Virus record (IMG/VR): IMGVR_UViG_3300032332_000934 | Location: 32,001 to 96,000 of that record | Strand: one strand, 5' to 3' | DNA length: 64,000 nucleotides | Source of the DNA: a virus | Lineage: Duplodnaviria; Caudoviricetes | In this document: piece by piece, positions 11,686 to 64,000 of the stretch | Layout: each line of letters starts with the position of its first letter | Numbering within the stretch: the stretch's first letter is position 1 | The notes under the pieces: generated by a model | The model's input: the letters and a program-made list of their open reading frames with translations, nothing else | Databases searched by the model: none | What the model was told of the DNA's origin: nothing | Program-made: the position numbers and the translations under genes

Positions 11686-11989
11686 TTTGTTTTGCTCTAA
11701 TCTGTTTCCATATGTCTTTTGTCTTATGAACATTTTTCATTTTATCAATTAATCCTGAAGATAAATATACTCCGCCCCAAACACCATATTCATTATTTTC
11801 AATCCCAGATTGGTGGCATATCTTCATAACTGGGCAAGACAGGCAGCATTGATCTATAGCCTTGGCCATATTTATATCAGATTCATATTTGTCAAAAAAT
11901 AGATTGGTGTCCATTCCGCTACATGCAGCAAGGTGCCACCATCTAATTGACTGTTCATCTGAATCTAATTCATTTAAAATATTTGACAT
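11678..11989 (-). CDS. whiB: WhiB family Fe-S transcription factor
   Basis: W..AAC...D.NLFF...C..CPV...C......E.GVWGG. Confidence 0.92.
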   Translation of the reverse strand: MSNILNELDSDEQSIRWWHLAACSGMDTNLFFDKYESDINMAKAIDQCCLSCPVMKICHQSGIENNEYGVWGGVYLSSGLIDKMKNVHKTKDIWKQIRAKQNV

Positions 11990-55844: not shown

Positions 55845-56431
55845 ACCTGCTCCAGGGATAAGTTAACACTCCAAAATGGTTGTAGTCCTCTTTTTATAAT
55901 TGTAAAATCGCATGAGCTGAACATCATTGTATAAGTATAATCATCTGCTAATGCTCCGTCAGACTGTTCAACTAAATCTATAGAAAAAACTGTTGGATTC
56001 AATTTGATTCTAAATGGAAGACGCCCTGCAGTGCTTTCATAAAAATTCTTTAAATCTTCTGCTCCCCAGGCACCGTCTACCGTTTCGTTTCTAAAAGATG
56101 GCAACATTTCCCAGGATACATTTACTGATAACTTATCTGCAATAAAATATTTCCTCATTATTCCATTTGCCATTCTCTGTCCAGTTTCAATTCTATTAAT
56201 ATTAAGAGATAATGGTGATCGATTATGCTCAGTAACTCTTCTAAATTTTAATTGATTTTTAGAACTAAGAGATAAATTATTTACAGTTGCAGTTGCAGAA
56301 TTATATGTAGATCCTGGAGCGGTAACTGTAGCACCCTTATAATCAAATGAATTTGTTGCTGGATCAATTGCAAATGGATCAATTGCCTCAATATAAAGTA
56401 TTGAGCCTTTGCTTAAATTTTGAAAACTCAT
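55841..56431 (-). CDS. distal tail protein-like
   Basis: Directly after TMP; R.ANG.MR.Y...K....VSW..LP, ends L.LEQV. Confidence 0.65.
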   Translation of the reverse strand: MSFQNLSKGSILYIEAIDPFAIDPATNSFDYKGATVTAPGSTYNSATATVNNLSLSSKNQLKFRRVTEHNRSPLSLNINRIETGQRMANGIMRKYFIADKLSVNVSWEMLPSFRNETVDGAWGAEDLKNFYESTAGRLPFRIKLNPTVFSIDLVEQSDGALADDYTYTMMFSSCDFTIIKRGLQPFWSVNLSLEQV

Positions 56432-59400
56432 TATGGACCAACCCTTCTATTTACTCCAGCAGCCATTTCTCTAATTCTCATTTCTTTATGTATTGAAGCG
56501 GCAACTTCATCTGCTGTAAGATTAGTTCCATTTAACTCGACATTAATATTATACAATGAGTTTGAAGAGGAAGCAAGGCCGCCGTCTGCATATCTTACAC
56601 GGCCACCACTTGACATCTTAGGAACATTATAACTAACCATTCCTCCAGATGCCATTCTATTAATACTATCTAGCATTGGAACTCCAGCTGCTTGAACAGC
56701 TTTTGCATTTATTACATATTCACCATTTGAAAGCATTGCTGGAATAGAATCAGATGTTGGTGTTCCTGCTCCAGATATATATCCACCAGTAGCGGCTTTG
56801 ATTCTAGATCCCTTGGTTTTTGTTTTATCATCCCAAGCGTAAACTTCTGTTCCGCTTTCATTGCTTACATAGTCTTTACCGTTCCAACTAAATCTATACC
56901 ATACAGTATCATTAATAGAAACCATTTTTGATGATCCTGCAGATCTAGCTTTTTTAGCTGCTTCCAAAGCTGTTTTCCCAGAACCAGATTGAATTTTATC
57001 TGGCCCAAATTCTACAGTTCCTTTTGGTGCTGGTCCCTTATATCCACCAAGAGCTCTTACAACTTCATCCTTTAACTCTTTAAGAGTTGTTCCGCCAGTA
57101 ATTGCTAATGCTAATTTTTCAACAGCTGCTAAGTCTTTATTAAATTGATTTAATACACTTGAATTTGTTGTTATATTTGATGAAAGTATTGGTTTACCAT
57201 TTTTATCAAATCCAGTAGGTGATCCAGTTGTTGTTGTAGTTGGTGATTTAGGACTTCCATCTGCATTAAAATATGCTGCAAAAGCATCTCTTGTTGTTTT
57301 AGCAGATGCGCTTGACCCAGTGCCAGATTTTTGAATTTCTTTAATTAATGCAATAAGCTCTGATGTTACTTTTGCTTCTGCGTCAGCTTTTTCTTTTGCT
57401 GGAAGAAGCTTTGCATCAATTGCTCTTGTAGTAAGGTCACTATATCTTGTTTGAAAGCCAGTTAGCTTTGTAACAATTTCAGCAGCAGATGCTGAATTAT
57501 CTTGAGCATTTTGAAATGCTACTGTTGTTTTATCAGATGCATTTTGAATTCCCTCTGCTTGTTTTTCTAATGGAGCTTTAGCTTTTATTGCAGCATCTTC
57601 AATTGCTTTAGATGCTAACTCACTTTGTCTATTTGATGTAAGTTGATCAATATCTAGCTGTGCTCTTGTAGCAGTAGCCATATCTCCACGAGAAACTGCA
57701 TCTGCATATTCTATTTGAAGTTTTTGTAATTCTATTGCATAATTTGATGCATCTTGAGTTGCTTTTAAAGCTTCTAATTTTTTATTTTTCTCATCTTCAA
57801 TAAGCTTAATTTTTTTAGCAATTAACTTAAGTTCTTCTTGTGCACTTCTTTGTGCAGCTGCTGCAGATCTTTGAGATGCAGCTGATGTTAACTTTATGCT
57901 ATTTTGTAATTTTGTTAATGCTGCGCCGAGGGTACCAAACGTTGTTTCTGATCCAGCTGCTTTTGTTAAATCAGAGATTCCTGTTCCAATAGCTGATGTA
58001 AATCCAGCTAGTTTAATTGCTAATGTAGAATCAATTTTGCTTAAATCAATATTAATATTAGCTGTAAACAATTTCCATTTTGCTAATATTCCCTTTATGC
58101 TATCTGCCTCATTTGCAATTGATGCCAGCAGAGGTTGGGTTTTTTGAAGATTTGAATAAACATCTGACCCAATTGCATTATTAATTCCTGGATTATTTTT
58201 TTCTGCATTAGACATAATTATTTGATAGGCTTTATACTCGTCAATAACATTTCCTAATTCATCTTTAGTTCCCACCAAGGAGGTTGTGGCATTTGTAAAT
58301 ACATTTATTAATCCCTCAAAACCATTTCCAACTTCTTTATACCAATCAGCTGTACCAGATCCTTTGTTCAAAGTATTTACTAGGTTACCAACTGAAAATT
58401 CTGCAGCTGAAGCTTTATCAATAATAGCTCCAAATTCTGTATCCGCAAGAACTTTATATGACTGAGATGCTTTATTACTATTAGACAAAGCTCCCCAAAT
58501 TTTTCTATTTGCCTCTTCAACACTTAAGCCAGCAGCAATCATTTGAGCTTTTTGATTTGATACTAGTCTATTTGTTTCTGATGAGCTTGAAGACCTATTA
58601 ATAGATTCAATTAAATCTTTTAACCCTTTGCCTTCTTCTTTAGCTTTTTTCATATCTTCTATTGATTGTGGCAATCCTGGCATTCCAATTCCACTATAAG
58701 AAGAACCTTTTGCTGCTGCAGTTACTGTTTTTTGCTTATCAATATACATTTGCATTGTTTCTTGAAGATTAAAATATTTTATTCCTGCTTGCTCGGCAGC
58801 TTTTGCAGTCATGGAAAGACCCATACGGGCATCTTGCCAATCATCTTGAACTCTTTTATAAATTTTAAATCCTTCAAATACTGCAGTTATTGCAAGTCCT
58901 ACTGGGCCAAAGCCTTTTAAAACATTTAATGCTTTAGATGAAATTTCAGTAAGCGAAAGTGCTCCGCCTCTTAAAGATGTTAGTGCACCACTAACTGAAG
59001 CAATTCCAGCCTTTGCTTTATCTGCCATGGCAACCCATGGAATCATTGGAAGAATGCTTGAGCCAATCATCAATCCCATACCAGCTTGCATTCCAGTTAG
59101 TCCGCCAACTTTTTCTTGCTGCATCATTGCCATTCCAGCCATTGATCCAGCCATACCAATTCCCATTTGAGCTCCCATACCCATTCCGTTTGATCTTGGA
59201 ATTGCATGTCCTGCTGCTGCAGCTTGTTTTGCACTCATTGCTTGGCCATTAACCATGTATTCAGTTTTTCTAAAACCTAAGCTTCCAACTTTTCTTTTTT
59301 CAATTCCTTCTTGGCCAGTTGGTTTCCATGAACCAATAATTCCTGGGCCAGTCATCATACCAACCTGCTTGCCAGTTGAAAGATTTATTGGCATTCCAGT

Positions 59401-62400
59401 TACTGGATGAAGTCCATATGCTCCAGGATATGCTTGTCCAAGTCTTCCAGCATTTTCTGCACGAACTCCAGAAGCAAAAATACTTCCAGTTGCTTGCATC
59501 ATTGTTGCTTTCATTCTCATTGTTGCAAGTGCTGATCTACCTGAGTTAACCATATTTTTTGTAAACTCTTGATAAGCCTGCTTAACGTGAGTTCCAGATG
59601 TCATCAATCCATATCTTAATGTAACTGCACCCTTAGTAGCTGAGTTTGCAAGCAATGTAAATCCTGCTTCTAAATATCTTGCCTTCATAATTGCAGAGTT
59701 TCTAAATGGATCAACTATATTGTTAACCATTACTTGGCCAGGATTATAAAAACTTGTTGTTCCAGTTCTAACCGCTTCTCTTCCAAGTCCAGATGTTAGA
59801 GCTTGCTGTCCAGACATCTGATGAGAGGCTGCTCTAGAGGCTGCGGCTCTTGCATCTCTTTCTCTTTGTGCACGTTGCTCAGATTCCCATGCAGCTCTAG
59901 CAGCTGGGTTTCCAGGTCTTCCGTAAGCATGTCGGCCTCTTTGGATTGATCCTCCTATTGGGCCTCCGCTATTTCTTTTTGCCTGAACATGAACTGCGTG
60001 TAATGGTGTAAAGTCTGTCTCCATTCCAGCTTCAAATCTTTGTAGTAATTTAATGTATGGGGCTCTATCTGCTTTTGGCATACTAGCAATAAACTTAACA
60101 AGCTTTGGATGCATTTTTTTCATAGCAGATTTCATTTTTCTGTCATACTGCTTTGCTGTCATTCCACCAGCAATTGGTGCTGTGTTTACTGCAAAATCTT
60201 TTCTTGCCCCTCCTTTAACTCCAAGGAGATTTATCATTGCCTGCTCTCTCATTGAAGGAAGTGACTTTGCAAACTCTGTGTTACCAGATGCTTTTGGAAA
60301 AACTCCAGCTGCTCCGACATCAGCTAAAACATTTCCAAATACGTTTGATGGGGAAAGGTCTTTGTTATTCATTACTAAAGAAGCAATTGTTTGTCTAATC
60401 ATTTCATCTTCTGTGAATTGAGTTCCACCGCCAGCAAATCTTTTATCAAATGGTGATTCTAAACCTAGCAACTTTGATTTTCCAGATGGGTCAAGCGGGT
60501 TCAATATTGTTTTAATTGTTTGTTCTGGTGCATCTAAGCCAAAAACTTCCCTAGCCATTCTAGTTCCATATATTTCTGCTTTTGCAGATATTTCATTTGG
60601 AACACCCTTAAAGAATTTAAGATTTCCATTAGTGTCTTTATATAAACCAGAAACTCCAGGAACTGGATAACTCATACCAGAACTTGGCTGGATCATATGA
60701 CCATATTCGGTTGGGGCCATGCTTCCATAAGGACCATCAGCTGTTTGCTTTGACATAGCTCGTGCTGACTCTAAAATCTTAAGCTGTTTTCCTGGTGATA
60801 GCAAACTTAATAATGAAGATGTGGTAGTCACTTTATTTCTATTAGCTACTGCTTCTTTAATCCAAGGATACTTTATCATATCCGCCTCGCGCTTTTTAGC
60901 ATTTGCTTCTTGCTGAGCTAGCCTTAAAGCTTCTAGTCTTGGAGATAGCGGAGGAATTCCATACGAAGATCGATTTGCAGATATTGATCCGCCTGGAATA
61001 ATTCCACCCTTATTAAGCAGAACTGGAATAGGAGGCCTTCCTCTAAATACCCATTTCTTTCTAGATGCAGCGGCTTCTAGCAACATACTTAATGAACTTC
61101 TTTGGTTCTTGGTTGATCTTACTACATTTCCAGATTGAATTTGAGCTTTGCTCTTAAATAATCCATCATCTTGTAGTGCTGTAAATATATCATTTGGCGT
61201 AGCAATTCTTGAAAGCCCAACATTTTTTAATGCTAACTCAAGATTTTTTCTTGCATCTAAACCAGTTAAACTTAAAACATCTGGAGATATTCCTATTTTT
61301 TGAAGTGTAGCCATTACACTATTTATATCATGAGGAAGAACTGCAGCAACACCCATATGACCTCTAGTTGCATATCCAACCTGCCCATGTCTTAGCAGAT
61401 GACCTCTTACATTTCTATCCAATAATGGTGAGCCGTTCGGATTAATTTTTGTTGGAGTTACATTTTCAACTAAATCCCATACATTTTCAAATGCTTTGCT
61501 ATTTAACATAGCATCTCTTACTTTATTTAAATTATTATTTAAACCCTTACTAGCAGTAGTTCGTGTTGCAGCAGAATTTGGATGCTTTAATGCTGGGTAT
61601 CTTCTTTCAAGGCCCTTGACCTGCTTAATTCTTTGTTCAATAAATTTTTCTAGAGATCCACCAGAAGATGCTTTTGCTAAATCAAAATTGCTTGAAGCAG
61701 CTCTAATAGCTCTTTCTGGAGACATTTTAGCATACTCAACTAGTTCAGATGCATCAAGCATAATCATTCTTAGTCTAACATCATCTTCATATCTTGGATT
61801 ATTAATAAATCTTAAATATTCCTTCATCTGTTTTTTAAATTCAGTTTTATTAATGCCATTTGGAGTATTGACTGTTTCTCTTCCATAACCAGATACACCA
61901 CTCATTATTTGCCCGCCAAAATTATATCCATTATTTGCTGCATCAATTGCAGCATAAAGCTCTGGCATTTTTTGAATCTTTGGACCAAACACAGTTTCCC
62001 GTGGAGTAAGTGCTGCTGTTATTTCTCCGCCATTTTCATAAGTAGCTGATGCCATTGCAATAAGTGGTGCGTTTGCTGGATCCATTGAAGCACCTTGGTT
62101 TAACACATATCCACCTATTGGTACACTGCCAAGTCGATCATCATAATTTATTGATGATGGGCCAGATACTGTTGTTCTATTAGGACCAAATGATTCTACA
62201 TCTCCACCAGTATTAAATTTTGGAAGTCTTGTTGTTTGAATACTATATGGTGCTCCAAAGGTTCTAACCCCACGTAATCTTCCAAACTCTTCCATTACAG
62301 AAGCATTTGCTTTTTTCTTATATAAATCTCTTAATGTAAATTGTCCATTAGTATCAACAACAGGTTGATTCATCATTGGAGCTTTTGTTGGATCTAATAC

Positions 62401-64000
62401 TCTTCCTCTAGAAATAGCAAGCATCTGTATTTCACCTGACATTTGAGATTCAATGCTGGCATTAAGGGCTAATATTTTAGCTTTTGCTTCTTCTACTGTA
62501 ATTTCAGCATTTCTCATTTGTTGTACAATCAATGCTGATTGATCTGCTGCAGAGATTGCAAATTTTTGAGTTATTGGCAATATGTCATCAAATGTATTTA
62601 ATAATTCTGCACTAACAGTTCCGCCCATTGCAATTGTTTTCTTTAGTGCGGCAACCTCTTGCTCTGTTTGCATACCAAGCGTAGCCATAAGAGCATGGAA
62701 TTTTGCAGCTTCTGCTGGTACAATTCCAGTTGAAATTCCTTTTACACTAGTAAGACCTTCAATATTTGGAAGCCTTTCATGCATATACATTTGAGGAGTT
62801 CTTGATATCCCTCTGTTAACTGGAACTGCTCCTGGAACTCCACCAAATATAGTTGCAGGATTATTAGCATCTCTAGGATTAATATGAGACATAGATCTAG
62901 TATTAGGATCTCCAACATAAGGATCATTAGGATCAACTACTCTTCTGCCTGCTGCCATAACTGGATTGCCAGCAACTGTACTAATTGCTCCATTGACTGG
63001 CACAGCATTTTTCATTGATGCTGATTGAAGATTTTGATAATCTAAAACAAGCTTTTGTAATGCATTGTGTAAAACTTGAGCTGCTGCAGCATCTGAATAA
63101 AATGCATTTTCAACCATAAGTGCTGCTTTTTCAGCGGCAATAATTTCTGGAGTAAGCATTTTCCATCCATGAGCTTTTTGAAAAAATGCTCTAAGTTGCA
63201 CAACGCCTTTAGTTATATAACCAAAGAAGTTTGCAAGTACACCAGTTAACATAATAAGTGGTCCAACTAAAGCAGTAAATCCTGCCATAAAAGTAAGAGC
63301 TTTTTTAATTGGCGTTGGAAGCCCAGTAAAGAAATCTAGAATTTTTGAAGCTGCATTAATAAATTTAGTAGCCACACCAAGAAATTCTTCACCTACAGAT
63401 GCAAGCTCTGCTCTTAATCCTTCCATTGCTCTTTTATATTTACCTGATGCAGACTCTGTAACCATTCCTAATTCTCGACTAGCAACTGCTGCTAGATCTG
63501 ATGTACTGGCTTTCATTAATTCCATAACCTGAACTGTTTGACTACCCTGTTTGCCTAAATTATTAAGTAAAGCACTCATTCTTGCAAACTGAAATTTGCC
63601 AAACATTTGTTCTAACGCTCTGGCTTTACTTAATGGGTCAAGCTTATCTAATGCTGATTGAAGATCAAGCAATAAACCTGTTGTATTACCAGTATTTTTT
63701 GCAACCATTCCCATAACATCAATACCAAACCCCGCCATCATTCCTGTTGTTTGTTTTGTTGGATTTATTAGAGAAGCTAAACCAGACTTTAGTGCATTTG
63801 CGCCTTCAGCAGCACTAATTCCACCTTCACGCATAGCAGTTAAATAAAGAGCTAAATCTTTTACGCTACCTCCTAATTGATTAATAACTGGACCAGCTTT
63901 TGGAATTGCTTCTACCAGATCGTTAAGAGTTGTTGAAGTTTGGTTTTCTACTGCGTTTAAAAAGTTAATTGATTCCGTAAGCTCTTTTGTGTTTTGTTTA
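56431..64000 (-). CDS. tape measure protein, partial (5' end beyond window), with embedded kinase-like domain
   Basis: Frame stays open upstream of the called Met to the window edge; TP901-like core (A...ANALKS.L..L..PT), hydrophobic segments, C-terminal GG.ISG.GT.TSDSIPAMLSNGEYV. Confidence 0.92.
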   Translation of the reverse strand, partial: KQNTKELTESINFLNAVENQTSTTLNDLVEAIPKAGPVINQLGGSVKDLALYLTAMREGGISAAEGANALKSGLASLINPTKQTTGMMAGFGIDVMGMVAKNTGNTTGLLLDLQSALDKLDPLSKARALEQMFGKFQFARMSALLNNLGKQGSQTVQVMELMKASTSDLAAVASRELGMVTESASGKYKRAMEGLRAELASVGEEFLGVATKFINAASKILDFFTGLPTPIKKALTFMAGFTALVGPLIMLTGVLANFFGYITKGVVQLRAFFQKAHGWKMLTPEIIAAEKAALMVENAFYSDAAAAQVLHNALQKLVLDYQNLQSASMKNAVPVNGAISTVAGNPVMAAGRRVVDPNDPYVGDPNTRSMSHINPRDANNPATIFGGVPGAVPVNRGISRTPQMYMHERLPNIEGLTSVKGISTGIVPAEAAKFHALMATLGMQTEQEVAALKKTIAMGGTVSAELLNTFDDILPITQKFAISAADQSALIVQQMRNAEITVEEAKAKILALNASIESQMSGEIQMLAISRGRVLDPTKAPMMNQPVVDTNGQFTLRDLYKKKANASVMEEFGRLRGVRTFGAPYSIQTTRLPKFNTGGDVESFGPNRTTVSGPSSINYDDRLGSVPIGGYVLNQGASMDPANAPLIAMASATYENGGEITAALTPRETVFGPKIQKMPELYAAIDAANNGYNFGGQIMSGVSGYGRETVNTPNGINKTEFKKQMKEYLRFINNPRYEDDVRLRMIMLDASELVEYAKMSPERAIRAASSNFDLAKASSGGSLEKFIEQRIKQVKGLERRYPALKHPNSAATRTTASKGLNNNLNKVRDAMLNSKAFENVWDLVENVTPTKINPNGSPLLDRNVRGHLLRHGQVGYATRGHMGVAAVLPHDINSVMATLQKIGISPDVLSLTGLDARKNLELALKNVGLSRIATPNDIFTALQDDGLFKSKAQIQSGNVVRSTKNQRSSLSMLLEAAASRKKWVFRGRPPIPVLLNKGGIIPGGSISANRSSYGIPPLSPRLEALRLAQQEANAKKREADMIKYPWIKEAVANRNKVTTTSSLLSLLSPGKQLKILESARAMSKQTADGPYGSMAPTEYGHMIQPSSGMSYPVPGVSGLYKDTNGNLKFFKGVPNEISAKAEIYGTRMAREVFGLDAPEQTIKTILNPLDPSGKSKLLGLESPFDKRFAGGGTQFTEDEMIRQTIASLVMNNKDLSPSNVFGNVLADVGAAGVFPKASGNTEFAKSLPSMREQAMINLLGVKGGARKDFAVNTAPIAGGMTAKQYDRKMKSAMKKMHPKLVKFIASMPKADRAPYIKLLQRFEAGMETDFTPLHAVHVQAKRNSGGPIGGSIQRGRHAYGRPGNPAARAAWESEQRAQRERDARAAASRAASHQMSGQQALTSGLGREAVRTGTTSFYNPGQVMVNNIVDPFRNSAIMKARYLEAGFTLLANSATKGAVTLRYGLMTSGTHVKQAYQEFTKNMVNSGRSALATMRMKATMMQATGSIFASGVRAENAGRLGQAYPGAYGLHPVTGMPINLSTGKQVGMMTGPGIIGSWKPTGQEGIEKRKVGSLGFRKTEYMVNGQAMSAKQAAAAGHAIPRSNGMGMGAQMGIGMAGSMAGMAMMQQEKVGGLTGMQAGMGLMIGSSILPMIPWVAMADKAKAGIASVSGALTSLRGGALSLTEISSKALNVLKGFGPVGLAITAVFEGFKIYKRVQDDWQDARMGLSMTAKAAEQAGIKYFNLQETMQMYIDKQKTVTAAAKGSSYSGIGMPGLPQSIEDMKKAKEEGKGLKDLIESINRSSSSSETNRLVSNQKAQMIAAGLSVEEANRKIWGALSNSNKASQSYKVLADTEFGAIIDKASAAEFSVGNLVNTLNKGSGTADWYKEVGNGFEGLINVFTNATTSLVGTKDELGNVIDEYKAYQIIMSNAEKNNPGINNAIGSDVYSNLQKTQPLLASIANEADSIKGILAKWKLFTANINIDLSKIDSTLAIKLAGFTSAIGTGISDLTKAAGSETTFGTLGAALTKLQNSIKLTSAASQRSAAAAQRSAQEELKLIAKKIKLIEDEKNKKLEALKATQDASNYAIELQKLQIEYADAVSRGDMATATRAQLDIDQLTSNRQSELASKAIEDAAIKAKAPLEKQAEGIQNASDKTTVAFQNAQDNSASAAEIVTKLTGFQTRYSDLTTRAIDAKLLPAKEKADAEAKVTSELIALIKEIQKSGTGSSASAKTTRDAFAAYFNADGSPKSPTTTTTGSPTGFDKNGKPILSSNITTNSSVLNQFNKDLAAVEKLALAITGGTTLKELKDEVVRALGGYKGPAPKGTVEFGPDKIQSGSGKTALEAAKKARSAGSSKMVSINDTVWYRFSWNGKDYVSNESGTEVYAWDDKTKTKGSRIKAATGGYISGAGTPTSDSIPAMLSNGEYVINAKAVQAAGVPMLDSINRMASGGMVSYNVPKMSSGGRVRYADGGLASSSNSLYNINVELNGTNLTADEVAASIHKEMRIREMAAGVNRRVGP

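Follow-up and report, generated by a model that had tools for sequence, protein, structure and literature searches.

The window analysed here (64,000 nucleotides, bases 32001-96000 of the IMG/VR virus record IMGVR_UViG_3300032332_000934, a Caudoviricetes phage genome of 114,966 bp with direct terminal repeats that is rated 100% complete) encodes on its minus strand a giant tape measure protein (TMP) that carries, near its middle, a domain with the predicted fold of a protein kinase. We consider it somewhat likelier true than false that this is a genuine protein-kinase-like (PKL) catalytic domain, held as a cassette in a bay fenced by short peptides within a siphophage-type TMP and acting on the host at entry. 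The results that bear directly on this reading are the kinase fold of the predicted model, the invariance of the phosphotransfer residues, the confinement of the family to TMPs, the in-frame residence of the domain and its arrangement as an optional cassette.

A first-pass annotation of the window had claimed a HipA/PI3K-like kinase domain inside the tape measure protein, at 59963-60957 on the minus strand. When the codon positions were re-derived, this interval translated to a 331-aa stretch containing GVSGLYKDTNGNLKFFK, AKAE, AREVFGLDAP, NKDLSPSN and LADVG in the order claimed, and it was found in frame within a single open-reading frame (56431-64000, minus strand), so that both the motif series and its location were borne out. 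The stretch has two parts:

59965..60825, minus strand: kinase-fold core, TMP aa 1363-1649 (287 aa), residues 45-331 of the 331-aa stretch, delimited by an AlphaFold2 (AF2) model and structure searches.
60826..60957, minus strand: 44 aa ahead of the core, either a linker or an N-terminal extension, with conservation in close relatives only, from the alignment.

The alignment marks these 44 residues as specific to the lineage. A Shine-Dalgarno-like GAGG lies 5 nt before an in-frame ATG (60877-60879; Met27 of the 331-aa stretch) at window 60877-60888 (minus strand), just ahead of the kinase core, and could be either a chance product of R-E-A-D-M coding or an internal start; the internal start was set aside because its product would still extend to the end of the TMP.

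The AF2 model of the 287-aa core, built with an alignment of 40 domain sequences excised from viral contigs, had a mean predicted local distance difference test score (pLDDT) of 90.6 and a predicted template-modelling score (pTM) of 0.88. It shows the bilobal PKL layout of an N-lobe beta-sheet with helix C and a helical C-lobe: an N-terminal helix is followed by strands at 41-47, 60-64 and 69-74 and a helix at 78-93, then by strands at 103-108 and 118-125, a helix at 139-151, a short hairpin at 162-167 and a five-helix bundle. Foldseek had been proposed as the check on the kinase fold, and the top 50 matches listed from the PDB were kinases exclusively, at weak E-values, among them actin-fragmin kinase, PI4KIIa, Fam20C, CtkA, HipA, CotH and Hanks kinases. 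Kinase-like proteins likewise made up all 50 top matches listed in both VIA-align searches, the second of which returned CotH at 11.8, CtkA at 10.5, PI4KIIb at 10.3, LepB-N at 9.2 and HipT at 8.8. Feature neighbours in the ESM Atlas that carried a Pfam label were PI3_PI4_kinase, HipA_2 and LepB_N, which we treat as leads only, and structural neighbours in BFVD (E down to 6.7e-6) were large phage proteins annotated as portal, ADP-ribosyltransferase or PI3/4-kinase. The nearest folds thus mix protein kinases (CotH, CtkA, Fam20C, HipA) with lipid kinases (PI4KII, MavQ, LepB, VPS34).

Conservation was assessed with a hidden Markov model (HMM) of the core, to which 248 near-full-length homologues (27-100% identity to the query) were aligned. 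Nine positions were invariant in all 248 (G50, S52, G60, K73, E84, P100, Q145, N161 and D169), D156 was kept in 247 and G171 in 98%, and the K, E, D, N and D of the motifs were among the dozen or so most conserved columns of the domain. Because the catalytic positions are conserved over this range of identity, the motifs are not a chance resemblance. On the model, K73 ends beta3, E84 lies in the following helix, D156 and N161 lie in the loop after helix 139-151, and D169-V-G comes after the hairpin at 162-167. The corresponding features in the window are:

60646..60684, minus strand: Gly-rich loop between beta1 and beta2, SSGMSYPVPGVSG, with G50, S52 and G60 invariant (model secondary structure and conservation).
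60607..60609, minus strand: beta3 lysine, core K73, 248/248 (model and conservation).
60574..60576, minus strand: helix-C glutamate, core E84, 248/248 (model and conservation).
60343..60360, minus strand: catalytic loop D-L-S-P-S-N, core D156 to N161 (conservation).
60313..60321, minus strand: DVG with the DFG-like metal-binding Asp, core D169, 248/248 (conservation).

The consensus of the catalytic loop was [DN]-K-D-L-x-x-x-N. The replacement of the usual catalytic-loop histidine by serine, pointed out in the first-pass annotation, is real in this protein but does not define the family, as the position is Ser in 68% of the homologues and otherwise varies among Q, G and A. Taken with the model, this pattern of residues suggests an active ATP- and Mg-dependent phosphotransferase.

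At the level of sequence the domain stands apart from all families searched. PHROGs, NCBIfam and PADLOC gave no family match for it, and PDB sequences matched neither in phmmer nor by profile. The CotH family (PF08757) had no match at E<=10 in the genome or in any of the 40 alignment members; the HipA families (PF07804/PF20613) and PI3_PI4_kinase (PF00454) had none at E<=10 in the same 40 members; and the family of Hanks-type Ser/Thr kinases (PF00069) had none in the genome at E<=1, a profile that does match in control genomes. Alignment of the family against E. coli HipA with hhalign gave a probability of 0.2%. Membership by sequence in the CotH, HipA, PI3/4K or Hanks families was rejected, since no profile recognises the domain; of the HipA/PI3K-like assignment in the first-pass annotation, therefore, the kinase fold is retained, as predicted by the model and the structure searches, and membership in the HipA or PI3_PI4_kinase profiles is dropped. 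Because no sequence profile recognises it, the domain is best described, on the predicted structure, as a new, previously unclassified and sequence-orphan PKL family that numbers several hundred members.

Those members were found in TMPs. A phmmer search of 1.84 billion cluster representatives returned 158 relatives, nearly all of 2,000-4,500 aa, and a word-indexed search returned 425 relatives of 1,554-4,946 aa, mostly with PF10145. A profile search limited to proteins of 138-1,413 aa gave 12 matches, most without a Pfam domain and on contigs of 1.3-6 kb, two of them with PF10145; these short matches look like fragments. One protein considered as a short stand-alone member (P0257) was rejected as a piece of a TMP of >4,342 aa. 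The domain gave no match in a pattern scan of 185,579 GTDB representative genomes and was not found by tblastn in 50,697 phage records with three divergent members as queries. In the databases covered, then, the domain appears to be TMP-specific and restricted to uncultured phages.

The protein that carries the domain has the marks of a TP901-type tape measure, namely a PF10145 region, hydrophobic segments, a conserved C-terminus and a tail-gene neighbourhood. PF10145 (PhageMin_Tail) and several tape-measure PHROGs match its N-terminal third, TMP C-terminal PHROGs match its last 80 residues, and its homologues include several hundred annotated TP901-family TMPs that carry PF10145. Tail genes flank the TMP gene, and those downstream of it match minor-tail and tail PHROGs. 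The gene runs past the window end and was completed with flanking DNA (L002:2432-10912, 2,826 aa), with its start at L002:10912, about 910 nt beyond the window. The gene and its membrane-type hydrophobic stretches, which stand on either side of the bay at TMP aa 537-571 and 1943-2012, are placed as follows:

56431..64000, minus strand: TMP gene, in-window part encoding aa 360-2826 of 2,826 (open-reading-frame list and translation).
63199..63303, minus strand: hydrophobic segment of membrane type at TMP aa 537-571, on the N-terminal side of the cargo bay (Kyte-Doolittle scan, peak 1.94).
58876..59085, minus strand: a pair of hydrophobic segments (TMP aa 1943-1963 and aa 1994-2012) within Gly/Met-rich sequence on the C-terminal side of the cargo bay (hydrophobicity scan).

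The bay is marked off by three copies of a peptide of the form GGxI-x6-YG, at TMP residues 999, 1307 and 1653 and each after N-x-GG, which bound two modules of about 300 aa, module A (aa 1011-1306) and the kinase module (aa 1319-1652):

61882..61917, minus strand: fence peptide 1, GGQIMSGVSGYG, TMP aa 999-1010 (motif scan).
60994..61881, minus strand: module A, TMP aa 1011-1306 (296 aa), mostly helical (AF2 pLDDT 63).
60958..60993, minus strand: fence peptide 2, GGSISANRSSYG, TMP aa 1307-1318 (motif scan).
59920..59955, minus strand: fence peptide 3, GGSIQRGRHAYG, TMP aa 1653-1664 (motif scan).

Module A had no family match in scans of Pfam, NCBIfam or PADLOC; it contains an invariant R-G-H...R...G-Y-x-T-x-G-x-M-G along with other motifs. 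A region-by-region comparison with 19 similarly long TMPs gave identities to this TMP of 83-97% for the first 1,000 residues, 30-46% for module A and 62-71% for the kinase core, indicating that the bay evolves faster than the scaffold, with the catalytic residues fixed. Among 3,780 related TMP matches overall, the 120 closest over residues 1-900 were surveyed, and the kinase module was present in 115 and not in five (P0287, P0288, P0289, P0291 and P0292), which are 73-78% identical over the first 900 residues. In these five, the same bay holds other unannotated sequence, and two also have a tail-lysozyme domain (PF18013) further downstream. Homology between this TMP and P0288 stops exactly at fence 1 (query residues 1-1010), and in P0287 it restarts at query residue 1647, six residues ahead of fence 3. 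Because homology in the relatives lacking the module breaks at or near the fence peptides, these look like recombination or module boundaries; they are possibly also processing sites. The existence of five close relatives with TMPs that lack the module argues that it is dispensable for tail building, and as far as these comparisons go the kinase module is an optional, exchangeable cassette outside the tail-building machinery. Modules of other kinds, namely CHAP, LysM, tail-lysozyme, M23 or HAD-phosphatase-like ones, occur in sister TMPs.

Other boundary peptides and pairings were seen as well. In distant TMPs the kinase module is flanked on both sides by a GG-x-V-S-G-P-G-T-G-T-S-D-S-I-P-A-type peptide instead of GGxI-x6-YG, and the TMP studied here has a GG-Y-I-S-G-x-G-T-x-T-S-D-S-I-P-A-M-L-S-N-G-E near its C-terminus (aa ~2709-2790, window 56431-56790, minus strand), followed by x-GG repeats. 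A TMP of >4,342 aa from another lineage (L101:4929-17954, plus strand, IMGVR_UViG_3300044972_000036) has the kinase-fold module at about aa 1040-1283 and, some 180 residues downstream of it, a HAD-superfamily phosphatase-like domain (Acid_phosphat_B E 1.2e-6, with weak PNKP-phosphatase matches), a pairing of kinase and phosphatase within one tape measure.

The 115-kb phage probably infects an actinobacterium. Support for this comes from a WhiB-family gene (PF02467, E 1.5e-13) at window 11768-11941 on the minus strand (G000:C1:43768-43941), a family found among 14 control genomes in Corynebacterium only. The hosts are probably abundant freshwater actinobacteria, which are hard to culture.

A route from tail to host can be proposed from these results and from work on phage TM4, in which TMP segments count toward tail length at ~0.15 nm per residue and a 114-aa deletion gave tails ~20 nm shorter (PMC1796659). 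By that rule the tail of the present phage would be roughly 400 nm long if the whole TMP were extended. Because the module is in frame between TMP parts needed for assembly, it would be carried in the tail, and because a folded 287-aa domain should not fit the tail-tube lumen, it would ride there in a non-native state, unable to fit folded beside the other TMP chains, and refold after ejection. At infection it would leave along with the rest of the TMP, and its refolding would take place either at the cytoplasmic membrane or inside it, flanked by the two hydrophobic regions of the TMP. As a kinase needs ATP, its useful site of action would be the cytoplasmic face of that membrane, where the refolded module could phosphorylate some protein, lipid or envelope precursor of the host ahead of any phage gene expression. 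Actinobacteria have phosphatidylinositol lipids. A fuller version of this scheme is tentative, and we think it possible but on balance improbable: a large lineage of uncultured freshwater actinophages would inject a pre-made, active atypical kinase from an exchangeable bay into the host cytoplasm ahead of the DNA, and before phage gene expression the kinase would either inactivate a factor of defence or translation or, at the entry pore, alter phosphatidylinositol lipids.

Several points weigh against reading the domain as a kinase delivered at entry. The kinase assignment rests on predicted structure, because no sequence method ties the domain to any kinase family; Pfam gave no match for the domain at E<=10, whether searched as a single sequence or with the 40 members. 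The Foldseek matches in the PDB were weak, with a best E of 4.6e-3 and TM scores of 0.3-0.42, and each residue of the PKL set was placed on its canonical element by its secondary-structure position in the model and not by residue overlay on a solved active site. No cultured phage with the module was found among the 50,697 deposited phage genomes. As for delivery, the use of ATP demands the cytoplasm, and it is an assumption that the middle of the TMP reaches it and refolds. PKL folds also catalyse AMPylation or glutamylation, as in SelO and SidJ, or are pseudokinases.

The last point opens the way to an inert or non-phosphotransferase module, such as a pseudokinase acting as a scaffold, a switch that binds nucleotide, or an enzyme for AMPylation or glutamylation, that would serve tail assembly, act as a plug or sensor for TMP exit, or add length to the ruler. 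Fold likeness alone proves no function, PKL folds with intact residues can do other chemistry (SelO, SidJ), and each embedded segment does lengthen the ruler (PMC1796659). Against this, the five phosphotransfer residues and three Gly-loop positions are invariant or nearly so in 248 sequences down to 27% identity, whereas the surrounding sequence and the neighbouring module A diverge fast, a pattern typical of active enzymes; an inert domain is disfavoured because its catalytic residues would not be expected to stay fixed while the sequence around them changes so quickly, and the close relatives whose TMPs do without the module argue against a part in tail assembly. We regard such a module as quite unlikely. 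An active PKL enzyme directed at a lipid or an envelope precursor (phosphatidylinositol, a sugar or a peptidoglycan precursor), working locally at the entry pore for DNA passage and not to reprogram the cell, is unlikely in our estimation: lipid kinases are among the nearest folds, but the top-ranking match, CotH, belongs to the protein kinases together with CtkA, Fam20C and HipA, no lipid-binding feature was identified in the domain, and the differences in Z between protein- and lipid-kinase matches are small.

The module might also work in the producing cell with no virion delivery, either excised at the GGxI-x6-YG fences from a TMP that serves as a polyprotein or active at a late stage of infection in TMP that is still free in the cytoplasm. 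Both modules are bracketed by fence peptides, three in all and evenly built, a folded 287-aa domain cannot fit the tail-tube lumen, and TMP processing occurs in other phages (lambda gpH, T5 pb2), all of which would suit this explanation. Excision is disfavoured, however, because an intact ruler is needed: cutting at two fences would fragment it and part the PF10145 N-terminus from the conserved C-terminus, both required for assembly. A protease site or cleavage at the fences is hypothetical, and the embedded enzymes of TM4 and P23-45 remain in their TMPs. Action in the producing cell seems to us very unlikely, and a catalytic PKL domain carried in the tail and acting at entry is the reading we prefer.

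Both enzymes within TMPs and kinases among injected phage proteins are already known; what appears to be new is a kinase-fold domain in a TMP, for which we found no report in the open-access literature (PMC, bioRxiv). Should the module be both active and delivered, siphophage tails would inject protein besides conducting DNA, and a kinase would be added to the very few enzymes known to be borne by a TMP, so far cell-wall hydrolases and the P23-45 RNA polymerase. With its fences and swappable content, the bay offers a testable model for the exchange of entry-stage effectors among phages. As a small, self-contained unit, the module has an activity and substrate that are accessible by ordinary expression and phosphoproteomics without the phage.

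Among known kinases, the highest fold similarity of all was to CotH, the atypical Ser/Thr kinase of the Bacillus spore coat (PDB 5jd9/5jda; PF08757), at an identity of 8-9%; CotH is a free spore-coat enzyme, whereas the present module is part of a phage TMP. The HipA/HipT toxin kinases and the PI3K/PI4K-type lipid kinases (PI4KII, MavQ, LepB-N, CtkA) are fold neighbours as well, but the present domain lacks the histidine of their D-x-H-x-x-N motif and, in contrast to HipA/HipT, has no antitoxin partner and is never stand-alone.

The closest parallels in arrangement lie in other virion proteins. Kinase domains have been predicted in the virion-delivered polyvalent proteins of phages and conjugative elements, which combine unrelated effector domains, several to a polypeptide, and T7 gp0.7 serves as functional model for them (Iyer et al. 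2017, PMC5512222). There, too, the kinase domain sits in a large multidomain polypeptide thought to enter with the DNA and modify the host early, and the architecture is analogous, with two fenced modules here and other enzymes in sister TMPs. The polyvalent-protein kinase family has lost its whole C-terminal subdomain and occurs in phages and prophages of the Verrucomicrobia-Chlamydia group and Bacteroidetes, and TMPs go unmentioned in that work (PMC5512222). The present domain, by contrast, retains a helical C-lobe and occurs in TMPs only, the two clades being set apart here by the published description. T7 gp0.7 differs in being expressed after entry and not carried in the virion. The nearest cases of an enzyme that a long-tailed phage incorporates in its tail ruler and uses at entry are Thermus phage P23-45 and mycobacteriophage TM4. 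The peptidoglycan-hydrolase motif in the TM4 TMP is dispensable and adds to tail length (PMC1796659). In P23-45, gp96 is a TMP-fused virion RNA polymerase that transcribes pre-early genes, with cytoplasmic activity shown experimentally, so that fusion to a TMP does not keep an enzyme from working in the cytoplasm; its authors propose that the polymerase stays associated with the TMP pore (PMC10770324). The enzyme classes differ, and the P23-45 polymerase is N-terminal, whereas the module described here is central and fenced.
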